Under the pieces are notes generated by a model, which did no database searches, was not told the origin of the DNA, and saw only the letters and a program-made list of their open reading frames with translations. A stretch of 64,000 nucleotides of DNA from a virus (Duplodnaviria; Caudoviricetes): the IMG/VR virus record IMGVR_UViG_3300027278_000003. One strand, 5' to 3'. Below are positions 24,653 to 28,241 of this stretch, piece after piece (the stretch's first letter is position 1; each line of letters starts with the position of its first letter). Position numbers and translations under genes: made by a program.

Positions 24653-24724
24653 ATGACATACGAACTTGTTACATCGCAAACATCAACAACACTGGGTAAT
24701 AACCCAGCGAATGATGCTGTGTGA
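24653..24724 (+). CDS. Putative attenuator leader peptide MTYELVTSQTSTTLGNNPANDAV
   Basis: CATAAATA at 24618, AAAGGA RBS, ATG 24653, TGA 24722-24724 immediately before an antiterminator arm. Confidence 0.7.
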   Translation: MTYELVTSQTSTTLGNNPANDAV

Positions 24725-24725
24725 C

Positions 24726-24799
24726 AGGGCGTAGACGATAACTAGACTAAAAGTTACGAAACGCCCTCAGAAAAAAATCTGAGGGTTTTTCATTTTTTA
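24726..24799 (+). promoter_or_regulatory. Attenuator: overlapping antiterminator and terminator
   Basis: AGGGCGT (24726-32) can pair with ACGCCCT (24761-67). CCCTCAGA (24764-71) alternatively pairs with TCTGAGGG (24778-85), followed by T tracts. Confidence 0.75.
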
Positions 24800-24801
24800 T
24801 G

Positions 24802-25244
24802 TTGACGAATCATAAAGAATGAACTAAATTATATAAATGTGATGGTCACTGACACAAACCAAAACATCGGGTTGTTCCGTAACGGACACGTGAGAGGTCA
24901 CGGTTAGCTTCTCATTCAGAGTATCCGACAGCGTTAAGGTCGGGCGGGGAGCGTCACTCATTATGATACACGCAAACTGACATTTGGGGAAAAATCTGTC
25001 CCGTGGTGGCGACCACATCTGAAAAAAGTTCTTGACGAATCGGATAAGTTTTGATAAGTTAAGAAAGTTGCGAGAGGGCAAAGGCTAGTAACCAGATGCA
25101 CTCGTAACAAAAAAGAAAAAAAGTTCTTGACAAAGACAAAATAGTTTGTTAGAGTGAGGAACATCAGAAGCGAAACGTGAGTTTCAAAAAAACTTCTGAA
25201 AAAGAAAAAAAGTTCTTGACAAAGACATTAAGTTTTGTTAGAGT
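24802..25244 (+). promoter_or_regulatory. Four tandem sigma70-type promoters with A-rich UP elements
   Basis: TTGACG 24802/TAAATT, TTGACG 25032/TAAGTT, TTGACA 25127/TAGAGT and TTGACA 25216/TAGAGT, each with a 17-bp spacer; the last two are near-identical direct repeats. Confidence 0.8.
24837..25018 (+). ncRNA. Candidate structured ncRNA A (unidentified)
   Basis: GC-richer, no credible ORF; the ends ATGTG-TGGTC and GACCACAT pair; several internal hairpins; starts at the +1 of the 24802 promoter. Confidence 0.4.
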
Positions 25245-25253
25245 TAGGAACAC

Positions 25254-25265
25254 GCTGTTTGAAAA
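25254..25265 (+). promoter_or_regulatory. boxA-like antitermination element
   Basis: GCTGTTTGAAAA just after the predicted +1 of the last promoter; resembles rrn boxA. Confidence 0.45.
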
Positions 25266-25274
25266 TTTAGAATG

Positions 25275-25580
25275 TCTTAATCTTCTAGACTTCGGTCGAT
25301 AATGAAGATGGAAACAGATTTTATCTGTTTTCAATTGTGTATTAAGAGCAAAGAAACGTGACAGGTAGGTAGGCTCCTAGGAGTAACGAACCCGTAAAAT
25401 CCTGGTGAGGGACCGAGCGTTGACGAATATGCAATTGTAAACAGAGTTTAAAAACGGCACCTGAGAACGAGTTGCTAGGCAGAAGTTGAACCGTGAAGAT
25501 GGCAGAAGTTCAACTACTCAGTAGAGGGTCACCTATACAAAGCCGTTTTTGTCTATTGCCTGGTGAACAATAGACAAATT
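25275..25580 (+). ncRNA. Candidate structured ncRNA/leader B (unidentified)
   Basis: Nested helices TCTTAAT/ATTAAGA, GAAACAGA/TCTGTTTT, AAAAACGGC/GCCGTTTTT, AGTTGAAC/GTTCAACT and GTCTATTG/CAATAGAC. Confidence 0.45.
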
Positions 25581-25585
25581 TTTAT

Positions 25586-25661
25586 TCCCAGATAGCTCAG
25601 TCGGTAGAGCAAATGACTGTTAATCATTGGGTCGGCGGTTCGAGCCCGTCTCTGGGAGCCA
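25586..25661 (+). tRNA. tRNA-Asn(GUU)
   Basis: Full cloverleaf, loop CT-GTT-AA, encoded CCA. Confidence 0.95.
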
Positions 25662-25666
25662 ATATT

Positions 25667-25756
25667 GGAGGGGTGGCAGAGTGGTTGATTGCACCGGTCT
25701 TGAAAACCGGCGTAGGCGAAAGTCTACCGTGGGTTCAAATCCCACCCTCTCCGCCA
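25667..25756 (+). tRNA. tRNA-Ser(UGA)
   Basis: CCGGT-CT-TGA-AA-ACCGG, long variable arm, G73, CCA. Confidence 0.95.
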
Positions 25757-25761
25757 AATTG

Positions 25762-25787
25762 GCCCTTATAGCTCAGTTGGTAGAGCA
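25762..25787 (+). pseudogene. 5' fragment of tRNA-Thr fused to an HNH remnant
   Basis: GCCCTTATAGCTCAGTTGGTAGAGCA is identical to 26050-26075; no anticodon or T arm follows. Confidence 0.75.
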
Positions 25788-25980
25788 ACGAGGTTATTCA
25801 TGTGAATGTTGTGGTATAAGCGAATGGCAGGGTAAACCAATCGTTTTAGAATGCGATCATATTGATGGCAATCACAAAAACAATACACCTGAAAACTTAC
25901 GATTAATTTGCCCAAATTGTCACAGTCAGACGGAAACCTATAAAAACAAAAACATAGGTAAAGGTAGATCGTATAGATAA
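25777..25980 (+). pseudogene. HNH endonuclease C-terminal fragment
   Basis: CECCG...LECDHIDGNHKNNTPENLRLICPNCHSQ zinc-finger/HNH; no RBS or normal start. Confidence 0.75.
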
Positions 25981-26049
25981 AATTTAAATTTTAGCGTATT
26001 AGGAACAACTTTTCGTTCTAAATGCTAAATAATTATATACGAAGATAAT

Positions 26050-26167
26050 GCCCTTATAGCTCAGTTGGTAGAGCAGTTGATTTGAAAGCACACGCGATAA
26101 CGATAGGTTCACAAGGTGTGTTTTCGTAATCATCAGGTCCGCGGTTCGAGTCCGTGTGAGGGCACCA
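26050..26167 (+). tRNA. tRNA-Thr interrupted by a 42-nt insertion in the anticodon loop (probably UGU)
   Basis: 118 nt; removing 26085-26126 gives a 76-nt cloverleaf with loop TT-TGT-AA, acceptor GCCCTTA/TGAGGGC, A73 and CCA. Confidence 0.8.
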
Positions 26168-26262: not shown

Positions 26263-26362
26263 AAAAATTTAATACCTCTGTGTCCAAATCATCATGAAAT
26301 GGTTCACAGTAAATATAAAAATGAAGTTACGCCTTTAATAGAAAGGCAAATTTCAGAAAAGT

Positions 26363-26436
26363 GGGGAATTGGTGAAGCGGGATCACGCTAGATTTGCATT
26401 CTAGAATCACGAGTTCGATTCTCGTATTCTCCACCA
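26363..26436 (+). tRNA. tRNA-Ala(UGC)
   Basis: Loop TT-TGC-AT; G3:U70 wobble and A73 alanine identity elements; CCA. Confidence 0.85.
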
Positions 26437-26455
26437 AACATATACTGGAAATTGT

Positions 26456-27196
26456 ATGAAGTATCGCTTGCCGTTCACAAAAGAAACTACATATACTAGA
26501 CATGGCTGGTTTCAATATGCTATGGTACTAAGTTTACCATTTTCTTTTTATTTTTTAACATTAGAACAATGGGTATACAGTCTTTTAGTCGGCTATGTGT
26601 TAGCTATAATTGGTCAAATTGTAGGTCACCATAGATATTTCAGCCATAGAAGTTTTAAACTAAACATCTTTTGGCACTATGTTTTATGTTACTTAACAAC
26701 AGTATTATCTATCGGTAGTGTATTAGAGTGGAGAAGAATGCATCTAGCGCATCACAAATACTCAGATACACAATATGATCCACATTCACCAACGTATAAA
26801 GGTATTTTAAAAGTATTTTTTATATCATGGTTTGATTACCCACAGGGTGTGGCTATCTCCGAAGAATCTGAAAAACTTAAATCAGAAAAAGGTATAGTAT
26901 TCTTTCATACATACTATGTATATATTATACTTTTTCATATTGCAATAGTTTCATTGATTGATCCTAAGTTGCTTTATGCTTTATACTTTTTCCCTCCGTT
27001 TCTTGCGTTAAGTATGGGTTCACTAGTGAATTCTCTTTTACACAATGAAAATGGACCGAAAGACAACATATTACTTGCATTTATTGCAGGAGGCGATGGT
27101 TATCATGCAATTCATCACGAAAAACCGTATTTGGCAACCTATCCTTTCCCAGATTTAGCAGGAATGATCATATCATTGATTAAAAAGAAAGAATAG
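26456..27196 (+). CDS. Fatty acid desaturase (delta-9-like)
   Basis: His boxes HHRYFSH, HLAHH and HAIHH; several TM segments. Confidence 0.88.
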   Translation: MKYRLPFTKETTYTRHGWFQYAMVLSLPFSFYFLTLEQWVYSLLVGYVLAIIGQIVGHHRYFSHRSFKLNIFWHYVLCYLTTVLSIGSVLEWRRMHLAHHKYSDTQYDPHSPTYKGILKVFFISWFDYPQGVAISEESEKLKSEKGIVFFHTYYVYIILFHIAIVSLIDPKLLYALYFFPPFLALSMGSLVNSLLHNENGPKDNILLAFIAGGDGYHAIHHEKPYLATYPFPDLAGMIISLIKKKE

Positions 27197-27213
27197 TATA
27201 AATAAACGTATAA

Positions 27214-27288
27214 GCGGGCGTAGCTCAGTGGTAGAGCGTCACCTTGCCAAGGTGAGGGTCGTGAGTTCGAATCTCATCGCCCGCTCCA
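27214..27288 (+). tRNA. tRNA-Gly(GCC)
   Basis: TCACC-TT-GCC-AA-GGTGA, U73, CCA. Confidence 0.95.
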
Positions 27289-27366
27289 AATTCCTAGCAT
27301 ATGATTTGACTATGCCATTCGGGTAACATACTTCCCGTTGAAACAATCACAAAAGTCACTGCTTTA

Positions 27367-27442
27367 GGGAGATTAGCTCAGTTGGTAGAGCGTCTCGTTT
27401 ACACCGAGAATGTCAGGAGTTCGAGTCTCTTATCTCCCACCA
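27367..27442 (+). tRNA. tRNA-Val(UAC)
   Basis: TCTCG-TT-TAC-AC-CGAGA, CCA. Confidence 0.95.
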
Positions 27443-27496
27443 TTTCACTTTCTCAAATCAGATAAATACCGTATAAGTTCTTTATGGGAGAAAGTC

Positions 27497-27757
27497 ATGA
27501 TCAAGCGTACAGGTTTAGCAAAAAGAGTGTCGGCGAAAGCGGCTCCTACTAAAAACGTATCTACACGTAAAAAAACAATTACAAAAACTGTCGAAGCAGA
27601 GGCTGCGCCAATGTTTACATTTAACATCACTGCTGGTGTTGAAAATCTAGGTTCAGTTATTGAAGCAAACGAAGAAGCAGCACTTGCGAAAGCAAGAAAG
27701 AAATTCGGCGCGCCATTAAATTATGGTGTGTTCCAATATACAGCAAAGCGTGTATAA
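27497..27757 (+). CDS. Small basic protein (86 aa)
   Basis: GGGAG RBS before ATG 27497; GATAAATA at 27461. The longer track ORF starts inside tRNA-Val. Confidence 0.6.
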   Translation: MIKRTGLAKRVSAKAAPTKNVSTRKKTITKTVEAEAAPMFTFNITAGVENLGSVIEANEEAALAKARKKFGAPLNYGVFQYTAKRV

Positions 27758-27897
27758 TTAAAGTTTCCAAACGTCAGTTGACGGCGTGACTGTTAGGAGA
27801 GACTAACATTTAAACTACATTTATGTGACGTAACCTTACTTAGAGTATGAAGTGCGTATCACCGAAACTTCCCAAGACATTCTAAATTTTTAAACAC

Positions 27898-27974
27898 CGG
27901 AGTTTAGCGCAGTCTGGTAGCGCATCTGGTTTGGGACCAGAGGGTCGCAGGTTCGAATCCTGCAACTCCGACCA
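27898..27974 (+). tRNA. tRNA-Pro(UGG)
   Basis: TCTGG-TT-TGG-GA-CCAGA, C1-G72, CCA. Confidence 0.95.
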
Positions 27975-27983
27975 TTTTTAATT

Positions 27984-28011
27984 GCGGTTGTAGCTCAGTT
28001 GGTTAGAGCAT
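27984..28011 (+). pseudogene. Truncated tRNA 5' fragment
   Basis: GCGGTTG-TA-GCTC-AGTTGGTTA-GAGC-AT, then an abrupt end. Confidence 0.65.
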
Positions 28012-28019
28012 TAAATAAA

Positions 28020-28094
28020 GGACTGTTGGTTTATCGGTTAGAATTCTCGCCTGTCACGCGAGGGAGACGGGTTCGATTCCCGTACAGTCCGCCA
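28020..28094 (+). tRNA. tRNA-Asp(GUC)
   Basis: CTCGC-CT-GTC-AC-GCGAG, G73, CCA. Confidence 0.9.
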
Positions 28095-28166
28095 TTAATA
28101 AGATATACTATGACAAATACCGGTACCGTTTGTGGAAAGTGATAACAGTTATAGTATATCTTTTAT

Positions 28167-28241
28167 GGCCCGTTCGTCTATCGGTTAGGACGCTAGGTTT
28201 TCAACCTAGAAAGAGGGGTTCGATTCCCCTACGGGCTACCA
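28167..28241 (+). tRNA. tRNA-Glu(UUC)
   Basis: CTAGG-TT-TTC-AA-CCTAG, CCA. Confidence 0.93.

Follow-up and report, generated by a model that had tools for sequence, protein, structure and literature searches.

The leaders of ilvGMEDA (Ile/Val/Leu) and thrL (Thr/Ile) are multivalent leader-peptide attenuators of enterobacterial amino-acid operons, and the pheM leader attenuates pheST, an operon of an aminoacyl-transfer RNA (tRNA) synthetase. T-box riboswitches bind uncharged tRNA directly, without any need for translation, and use a codon-like specifier to report on the state of a given tRNA. The presence of tRNA genes in phages has been attributed to codon-usage compensation, to replacement of degraded host tRNAs or to escape from anticodon nucleases, and both the reasons for their presence and their control are still debated. 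This work addresses a stretch of 64,000 nucleotides (the window) of the Caudoviricetes record IMGVR_UViG_3300027278_000003, a 342-kb phage genome from IMG/VR (92% complete according to the CheckV estimate, 39% G+C) hereafter named G000. In this window, a 23-codon open reading frame (ORF) lies ahead of an array of ten tRNA genes. It is probably the leader peptide of a ribosome-mediated transcription attenuator whose codons form a checklist of the downstream anticodons.

The locus shares with the ilvGMEDA and thrL leaders a short, apparently translated leader preceded by a ribosome-binding site, exclusive 1:2, 2:3 and 3:4 structures, a stop codon beside region 2 and several kinds of regulatory codons. 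It differs from them since tRNA genes, and not biosynthetic enzymes, lie behind the terminator and since the element is viral. Furthermore, whereas those leaders carry runs of one to three amino acids, at least 10 anticodons are sampled here, mostly once each; the ORF spans both arms of the 1:2 hairpin and, in the window, promoter-like sites follow the terminator. The stall-versus-completion logic and the pause-type hairpin are also those of Escherichia coli trpL, and one related type of unit (MSNTT.YI..WPPRDWGMF) has two Trp codons. Unlike in trpL, the sensed tRNA would itself be the regulated product (tRNA-Trp), closing the loop on tRNA and not on amino-acid supply. As in pheM, a leader-peptide attenuator would govern a component of the decoding apparatus through the decoding of cognate codons, whereas pheM regulates a synthetase, deals with a single amino acid and is cellular. 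T-box riboswitches have in common with the phage leader a transcription attenuation that would report the state of particular tRNAs, but their Stem I specifier and T-box sequence are not found here. Indeed, a cmscan search of positions 24000-29000 (E up to 1) detected only tRNAs and chance matches, and neither a T-box nor any other Rfam cis-regulator. Judged from the sequence, what would be new is that the regulated genes are tRNA genes and that the leader samples each downstream anticodon. A full-text literature search found no published description of such a control of tRNA genes.

The array encodes Asn, Ser, Thr, Leu, Ala, Gly, Val, Pro, Asp and Glu tRNAs. These ten amino acids are all present in the leader and account for 20 of its 22 non-start codons, Tyr (TAC) and Gln (CAA) being the only ones outside this set, as pointed out by an initial sequence-only reading of the window. 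Codons for Lys, Arg, Ile, Phe, His, Cys and Trp are absent from the leader. All five Thr codons are ACA, grouped within ACA-TCG-CAA-ACA-TCA-ACA-ACA (P ~0.03, ACA making up 48% of the Thr codons genome-wide), and Asn, Ser and Thr, which correspond to the first three tRNAs of the array, contribute 10 of the 22 codons. The same reading considered the remaining codons readable by the phage anticodons, provided that standard wobble or U34 modification applies; this stands for strict wobble in 17 of 22 codons and extends to 20 of 22 only if U34 also reads U. The array amino acids represent 63.5% of the residues of the phage proteome, which gives a binomial P of 0.004 for at least 20 matches in 22. 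Among 22-residue windows of the proteome, 2.1% reach 20/22 and 0.086% also hold all ten amino acids; among the ATG-initiated ORFs of 20-30 amino acids in the genome, 2/1065 reach the amino-acid fraction of the leader. At the codon level and under strict wobble, 17 codons are matched for 9.7 expected (P = 0.0016). Furthermore, the leader offers a strictly cognate codon for each of the ten anticodons, a coverage that is rare both among proteome windows (P = 0.001) and among short ORFs (1/1434, 0.0007), and random ten-anticodon arrays give P < 5e-5. The overlap is therefore significant against both of the null models that the sequence-only reading had proposed, proteome frequencies and random short ORFs, and the leader is enriched in codons tied to the product of the genes that it would regulate.

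The other parts of an attenuator were found by computation: a short ORF with a ribosome-binding site, a terminator between the leader and the genes, and switchable exclusive structures (Table 1). The long hairpin has a z of -8.2 when the terminator is included. The antiterminator starts one base past the stop codon and has an inner helix (TAACT/AGTTA). ACGCCCT reaches into the terminator's 5' arm; the two structures have CCCT in common and are mutually exclusive. The folding of nascent RNA was modelled with a ribosome footprint of 27 nucleotides (nt). With the ribosome at codons 3-19, the antiterminator belongs to the minimum free energy (MFE) structure, whereas it is absent with the ribosome at the stop codon, both in the window and in the related contig L005; when no ribosome is placed on the RNA, the terminator forms along with the long hairpin. 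This three-structure logic is also found in four further units described below (c2, the two homologues from G005 and a Trp-type unit). The hairpin was not found as a repeat elsewhere in the genome. The words related to the putative promoter motif (NATAAATA) show a genome-wide strand bias (GATAAATA, 39 vs 7; ATAAATA, 70 vs 19). An ATAAATA-type motif occupies the matching place in the relatives L022, L005 and G005 and also precedes the c2 and Trp-type units.

Table 1. Coordinates of the leader unit, the tRNA array and the intervening region in the window
Feature	Position	Strand	Remarks
CATAAATA motif, T4-late-promoter-like	24618-24625	+	28 nt 5' of start codon; putative promoter
Shine-Dalgarno (SD) site AAGGA	24643-24647	+	5 nt ahead of ATG
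Long imperfect hairpin (regions 1:2)	24649-24743	+	encloses whole ORF; MFE -34.8 kcal/mol, z = -5.7
Leader ORF, 23 codons + TGA	24653-24724	+	peptide MTYELVTSQTSTTLGNNPANDAV
Antiterminator (regions 2:3)	24726-24767	+	AGGGCGT (24726-24732) pairs with ACGCCCT (24761-24767)
Intrinsic terminator, GCCCTCAGA-AAAAAA-TCTGAGGGT then T tract	24763-24798	+	9-bp GC-rich stem; -14.6 to -17.4 kcal/mol
Sigma-70-type promoter-like sites, terminator-to-tRNA gap	24802-24830, 25127-25155, 25216-25244; ~25033 by eye	+	
Non-coding stretch, 0.74 kb, candidate stable RNAs	24837-25578	+	no credible ORF; no Rfam match
tRNA-Asn (GUU)	25586-25661	+	ARAGORN and Rfam; leader codons AAT, AAC, AAT
tRNA-Ser (UGA)	25667-25756	+	ARAGORN and Rfam; leader codons TCG, TCA
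tRNA-Thr (UGU)	26050-26167	+	42-nt insert in anticodon loop; five leader ACA codons
tRNA-Leu (UAG)	26178-26262	+	ARAGORN; CTG cognate, CTT requires expanded wobble
tRNA-Ala (UGC)	26363-26436	+	ARAGORN; GCG cognate, GCT requires expanded wobble
tRNA-Gly (GCC)	27214-27288	+	ARAGORN; leader codon GGT
tRNA-Val (UAC)	27367-27442	+	ARAGORN; GTG cognate, GTT requires expanded wobble
tRNA-Pro (UGG)	27898-27974	+	ARAGORN; leader codon CCA
tRNA-Asp (GUC)	28020-28094	+	ARAGORN; leader codon GAT
tRNA-Glu (UUC)	28167-28241	+	ARAGORN; leader codon GAA

Translation of the ORF, stalling, read-through and the choice of the promoter that feeds the unit can be proposed from these structures as follows. Transcripts would begin upstream, probably at the late-type CATAAATA motif, and would be translated while being made. 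If all codons are decoded promptly, the ribosome reaching the TGA would cover AGGGCGU, so that the terminator would form and transcription would stop at ~24790-24798. A shortage of any cognate charged tRNA would make the ribosome stall at about codons 3-19 and hold the 5' arm of the long hairpin. AGGGCGU would then pair with ACGCCCU, the 5' arm of the terminator would be removed and the polymerase would enter the tRNA genes. In untranslated RNA, the terminator would form together with the long hairpin. The outcome would be a negative feedback on the decoding capacity for the codons of the array, added to constitutive sigma-70-type transcription from beyond the terminator.

The unit is conserved in two relatives, L022 and L005, whose leaders are MNYTLVTTETSTTLGNPVNDAV and MSYELVTSTSTTLDNNPANGAV, respectively. 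Two independent in-frame 3-nt indels have left the frame, start and stop intact, and the GGA core of the SD site is kept despite changed neighbours (GAGGA in L022, AAGGA in L005). The leader of L022 has six ACA codons and that of L005 has four. The hairpin fold is maintained (z = -7.1 in L022 and -4.8 in L005), with compensating changes among relatives (GGGU/ACCC to GGAU/AUCC, and CACUGG/CCGGUG), and the terminator is identical in both. The inner helix of the antiterminator of L005 is an unrelated sequence (AGAAAU/GUUUCU) that still pairs. When metagenomes were scanned for the terminator pattern, a single true relative was retrieved (L020, which is the same contig as L005), together with five chance terminators, and the sole match of an exact 17-mer from the leader was the unrelated contig L008. 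Nucleotide searches of the phage collection with the locus gave only tRNA matches or nothing, this collection contains no close cultured relative of the phage, and single-protein searches of IMG/VR with two neighbouring proteins retrieved no relative.

The caveat of the sequence-only reading that other tRNA clusters may exist outside the window proved justified, as 18 further tRNAs are encoded in three clusters elsewhere in the genome. They include Gln, Lys, Arg, Ile, Phe, His and Cys tRNAs and one of the amber-suppressor type. A transfer-messenger RNA (tmRNA) is also encoded; ARAGORN calls it in permuted form at G000:C1:185943-186373, with the tag peptide ANTNAAPAMAKLAA. No leader unit was found at clusters c3 and c4. 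Cluster c3 (G000:C1:137854-138054) contains long ARAGORN calls with A34 anticodons whose identity is uncertain (Phe-AAA, 96 nt; Ser-ACT, 90 nt), and Tyr-ATA calls of this kind occur in G005 (L122:3885, 5732). Cluster c2 (Met, Cys, Met, Lys, Ile, Pro, Gln, CTA-suppressor, Met, Met, Arg, Phe, His) is preceded by a unit that is not homologous to that of the window and consists of ATAAATA, a promoter, an SD site, the ORF MKQSYGHKQIISNNIRWCQFMYGCGGSFGL and a terminator (-25.6 kcal/mol).

The codon match was then evaluated in units that were examined only after the hypothesis had been stated: the c2 unit (type M2, that of the window being M1), the M1 and M2 homologues of G005 and a third type, M3, in L009. 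Codon matches were counted under strict wobble, coverage P values refer to proteome windows, and the array-randomisation null agrees with them. The c2 leader has 14/29 codons cognate to its own array for 8.0 expected (P = 0.014) and covers 7/9 anticodons (P = 0.11). It includes three Ile codons. Cross-matches are depleted: the c2 leader contains 5 codons of the window array vs 12.8 expected, and the window leader contains 2 codons of the c2 array vs 6.0. The genome G005, a relative with 48% identity in a marker protein, carries strongly diverged homologues of both units. Its leader 1, MTFVATSIQAQGLGNNPEDNVCLGGM, precedes Met, Asn, Arg, suppressor, Asp, Gln, Pro, Pro, two Gly-UCC, Thr, Leu, Ala, Gly-GCC, Val, Glu and Ser tRNAs. 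Its leader 2, MKTASTHKMIIRRTWCGRFMYSGCEGLGMGM, precedes Tyr, Ile, Met, His, Ser, Cys, Tyr, Arg, Lys, Trp, Ser, Met and Met tRNAs. Leader 1 matches 19/25 codons for 13.1 expected (P = 0.014) and covers 13/14 anticodons (P = 0.0004), and leader 2 matches 18/30 for 8.8 expected (P = 0.0005) and covers 10/10 (P = 0.0008). Both avoid the codons of the other array (one cross-match being 2 vs 7.3 expected). The leader peptides of G000 and G005 have little in common beyond LGNNP, yet each covers its own array. The units of G005 also keep the folding logic, with a covariation from GAAACU/AGUUUC to AAGACU/GGUCUU.

Furthermore, some codons move between leaders together with their tRNA genes. In G005, where the Gln tRNA is part of array 1, two Gln codons occur in leader 1 and none in leader 2. 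In G000, this tRNA belongs to array 2, and leader 2 has three Gln codons and leader 1 has one (none in L022 and L005). Met and Gly-UCC codons likewise follow their tRNA genes, whereas Tyr, Trp and Ser-GCU codons do not. Leader composition is thus not independent of tRNA content across relatives, which is one of the two points on which the sequence-only reading had staked its proposal. The view that the match was probably a coincidence of common amino acids, taken early in this analysis, was overturned by these prospective tests.

A tRNA with a CTA anticodon, expected to read the amber codon, is encoded in both phages (G000:C1:132737-132811, in c2, where the leader ends with TAG; G005 L123:4143, where the corresponding leader ends with TGA). 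It may point to stop-codon reassignment or to suppression late in infection. A tie between a TAG leader stop and a downstream CTA suppressor tRNA was considered and rejected, as it holds in c2 of G000 and fails in G005.

The third type of unit, MSNTTGYITCWPPRDWGMF, lies within an array, directly ahead of tRNA-Trp, and has two Trp and two Pro codons (WPPRDW). In L009, it precedes Trp, Cys, Gly-UCC and Pro tRNAs. Seven of its 18 codons are matched (TGC, two TGG, two CCA and two GGA) vs 1.2 expected (P = 1e-4), and the coverage is 4/4 (P = 0.0045). Its terminator ends 8 nt ahead of tRNA-Trp without any intervening promoter. Eight more IMG/VR contigs carry this unit, and tRNA-Trp is the first gene after it in all of them. 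According to the modelled fold, a ribosome stalled at the first Trp codon would free region 2.

The same design was found in a cultured phage, phiCbK, which belongs to an unrelated lineage and whose sequences are not homologous to those of the window. In phiCbK, a promoter and a 45-codon ORF, gp083 (annotated as a hypothetical protein), are followed by an annotated rho-independent terminator, and 22 nt separate the latter from a block of ten tRNAs (Pro-CGG, Pro-GGG, Lys-CUU, Lys-UUU, Leu-CAG, Leu-CAA, Leu-GAG, Ala-UGC, Ser-CGA and Ser-GGA). Of the 44 codons evaluated in gp083, 23 are cognate to these tRNAs for 11.3 expected (P = 1.4e-4), and the anticodon coverage is 10/10 (P = 1e-4). A second unit, ahead of Phe, Val, Ile, Ile, Val, Gln, Gln, Ile and Gly tRNAs, covers 8/8 anticodons, and cross-matching is depleted (1/44 vs 9.0 expected). 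The terminator of phiCbK abuts the tRNAs, with no promoter between them in the gp083 unit, whereas in the window 0.8 kb with promoter-like sites and candidate stable RNAs intervenes.

Several observations weigh against the leader being a checklist that controls the array. The first concern transcription and structure. At least three promoter-like sites separate the terminator from the first tRNA of the window; the site at 24802 is conserved in L022, L005 and G005. Since these sites, which would give attenuator-independent transcription, follow the terminator, the attenuator can gate only a part of array transcription, that arriving from upstream. Moreover, the ORF sits wholly inside the hairpin and spans both of its arms, so that RNA structure partly constrains its composition. 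Other difficulties concern the match itself. In this phage, the tRNA-Thr gene that corresponds to the five ACA codons is an interrupted one. On its own, the c2 leader does not differ significantly from random short ORFs (P = 0.24 for amino acids and 0.15 for codons). L005 has no tRNA-Ser after tRNA-Asn or elsewhere on its 13.6-kb contig, and its leader has three Ser codons. Among the Trp-type units, a Cys codon is present in L114, L116 and L118 although they have no Cys tRNA, L115 lacks a Lys codon for its Lys tRNA, and GGA codons persist where Gly-UCC is absent. A strict one-to-one tracking of tRNA gain and loss by codons was therefore rejected for this unit on the basis of the mismatches in L114-L116 and L118. 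Finally, many relatives manage without the element. L009-L013, L033, L035, L036 and L038 share the array start Asn-Ser-Thr-Leu without any leader ahead. Most of these leaderless relatives also keep the order Asn-Ser-Thr-Leu-Ala-Gly, and their ATAAATA motif is followed directly by promoters. Likewise, no leader unit was found at the tRNA clusters of G001-G003 and L035-L039. As homologous units are not independent samples, the independent evidence consists of the three non-homologous unit types, of phiCbK and of the matching retained despite divergence.

This tempers the initial description of the leader as a possible multiplexed barcode polling every tRNA of the array. The codon-anticodon match on which it was based is confirmed, and the description itself is supported by the further units and by phiCbK; a fine tracking of tRNA content fails in places, and polling would be a function deduced from the match.

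The failure of fine tracking in Trp-type variants also favours the most resistant of the alternatives, which we nevertheless regard as unlikely: the attenuator would report general translation status (ribosome availability or late coupling of transcription and translation) and not particular tRNAs, and the match would be a by-product of co-inheritance. Indeed, the alternative structures need merely a slow or absent ribosome, whatever the codons, and most tRNAs have a single cognate codon in the leader, which makes a weak stalling signal when starvation is mild. Leaders and arrays that are homologous have been inherited together, so part of the match is shared history. Against this alternative stand the strongly diverged leaders of G000 and G005, which still cover their own arrays (10/10, 13/14 and 10/10) and avoid the codons of the other, the Gln, Met and Gly-UCC codons, which follow tRNA genes between leaders, and the non-homologous units (the Trp type and gp083 of phiCbK), which match likewise.

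The conservation of the SD site, start, stop and frame through two in-frame indels speaks against a second alternative, slightly less probable still, in which the hairpin and terminator would form the 3' end of the late transcription unit that lies upstream, acting as a small RNA or serving stabilisation or processing, with the ORF as a small gene or an accident of the hairpin. Its appeal lies in the position of the element, which directly follows upstream genes and leaves the array with promoter-like sites of its own downstream, and in the great stability of the hairpin (z = -5.7 to -8.2); furthermore, relatives manage without the element and a 23-codon open frame is not rare by chance. However, an antiterminator that begins one base past the stop codon competes with the terminator and persists in L005 with a different inner helix. 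Analogous units lie ahead of tRNA genes at four other places, once without a promoter between, and the codon matching and coverage are explained neither by chance nor by structure alone. A single-amino-acid attenuator of the thrL type, in which only the ACA run (perhaps with Ser and Asn) is regulatory and the other matches are incidental, is very improbable: ACA does make up 5/22 codons, clustered at codons 7-13 in the 5' arm (six in L022, four in L005), Asn, Ser and Thr together make up 10/22, and the Trp-type unit, always followed first by tRNA-Trp, resembles a classical Trp leader, but, with ACA at 48% of the Thr codons genome-wide, five out of five has a P of ~0.03, the G005 homologue covers 13/14 anticodons with just two Thr codons, 10/10 coverage recurs in M2 of G005 and in gp083, and the tRNA-Thr is interrupted here.

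Several features of the array and of its surroundings deserve mention beside the attenuator. With default settings, ARAGORN detects nine of the array tRNAs; the tenth, Thr-UGU, is found with the Rfam tRNA model (26050-26164, 53 bits) and with ARAGORN when introns are allowed. Its insert forms a hairpin, is located at TTTG^TAA and is absent from the otherwise identical copies of L022 (10533-10608) and L005 (11127-11202); at this place, L022 carries two Thr genes in tandem, both intact. A second copy of the first 26 nt of tRNA-Thr lies 288 bp upstream and continues into an HNH-endonuclease ORF (25762-25788 and 25789-25980). A remnant of the 3' end of another HNH endonuclease gene (..LCPNHHEMVHSKYKNEVTPLIE..) occupies positions 26263-26391 and looks like a decayed homing endonuclease; at the matching place, L005 has a full HNH gene of 153 amino acids (11352-11813) that ends inside tRNA-Ala. 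An orphan 5' half of a tRNA (GCGGTTGTAGCTCAGTTGGTTAGAGCA, 27983-28010), directly ahead of tRNA-Asp, is probably debris of a rearrangement or of an endonuclease event. A gene of the fatty-acid desaturase family lies within the array (26456-27196), and two radical-SAM genes directly follow it (28280-30935).

The non-coding stretch between the terminator and tRNA-Asn, which may hold stable RNAs, is partly conserved in L022, L005, G005 and remoter relatives (e.g. gttaagaaagttgcgagagggcaaagg and acgctgtttgaaaattt). Metatranscriptome contigs from four estuarine and marine runs are identical to 24801-25076, 25085-25268, 25169-25432 and parts of the array, and another covers 25451-25577 with one mismatch. 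The leader has no such cover, an absence that carries no weight; nor can contigs show transcript ends. Between the promoters and tRNA-Asn, L022 has an extra ~0.9 kb (L022:9250-10160) without any credible ORF and apparently structured. It includes a tRNA-like Arg(TCT) call, and a similar call is found in L006.

The attenuator reading can be extended to a closed-loop control of phage tRNA arrays per anticodon, in which the shortage of any listed tRNA would open the terminator. Such a shortage could come from the codon demand of late infection, from host tRNA degradation or from host anticodon-nuclease defences. The device would have arisen repeatedly, among aquatic jumbo phages, among phiCbK-like phages and possibly elsewhere. 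We consider this broader proposal an even call. Since relatives and an unrelated cultured phage show the design as well, tRNA synthesis in phages is probably demand-driven, and the question can be tested in a cultured system, phiCbK on Caulobacter. If true, this would be the first case known in which the decoding capacity provided by tRNA genes regulates these genes themselves, with a direct readout of supply versus demand, and the design would offer a natural multi-input sensor of tRNA availability.

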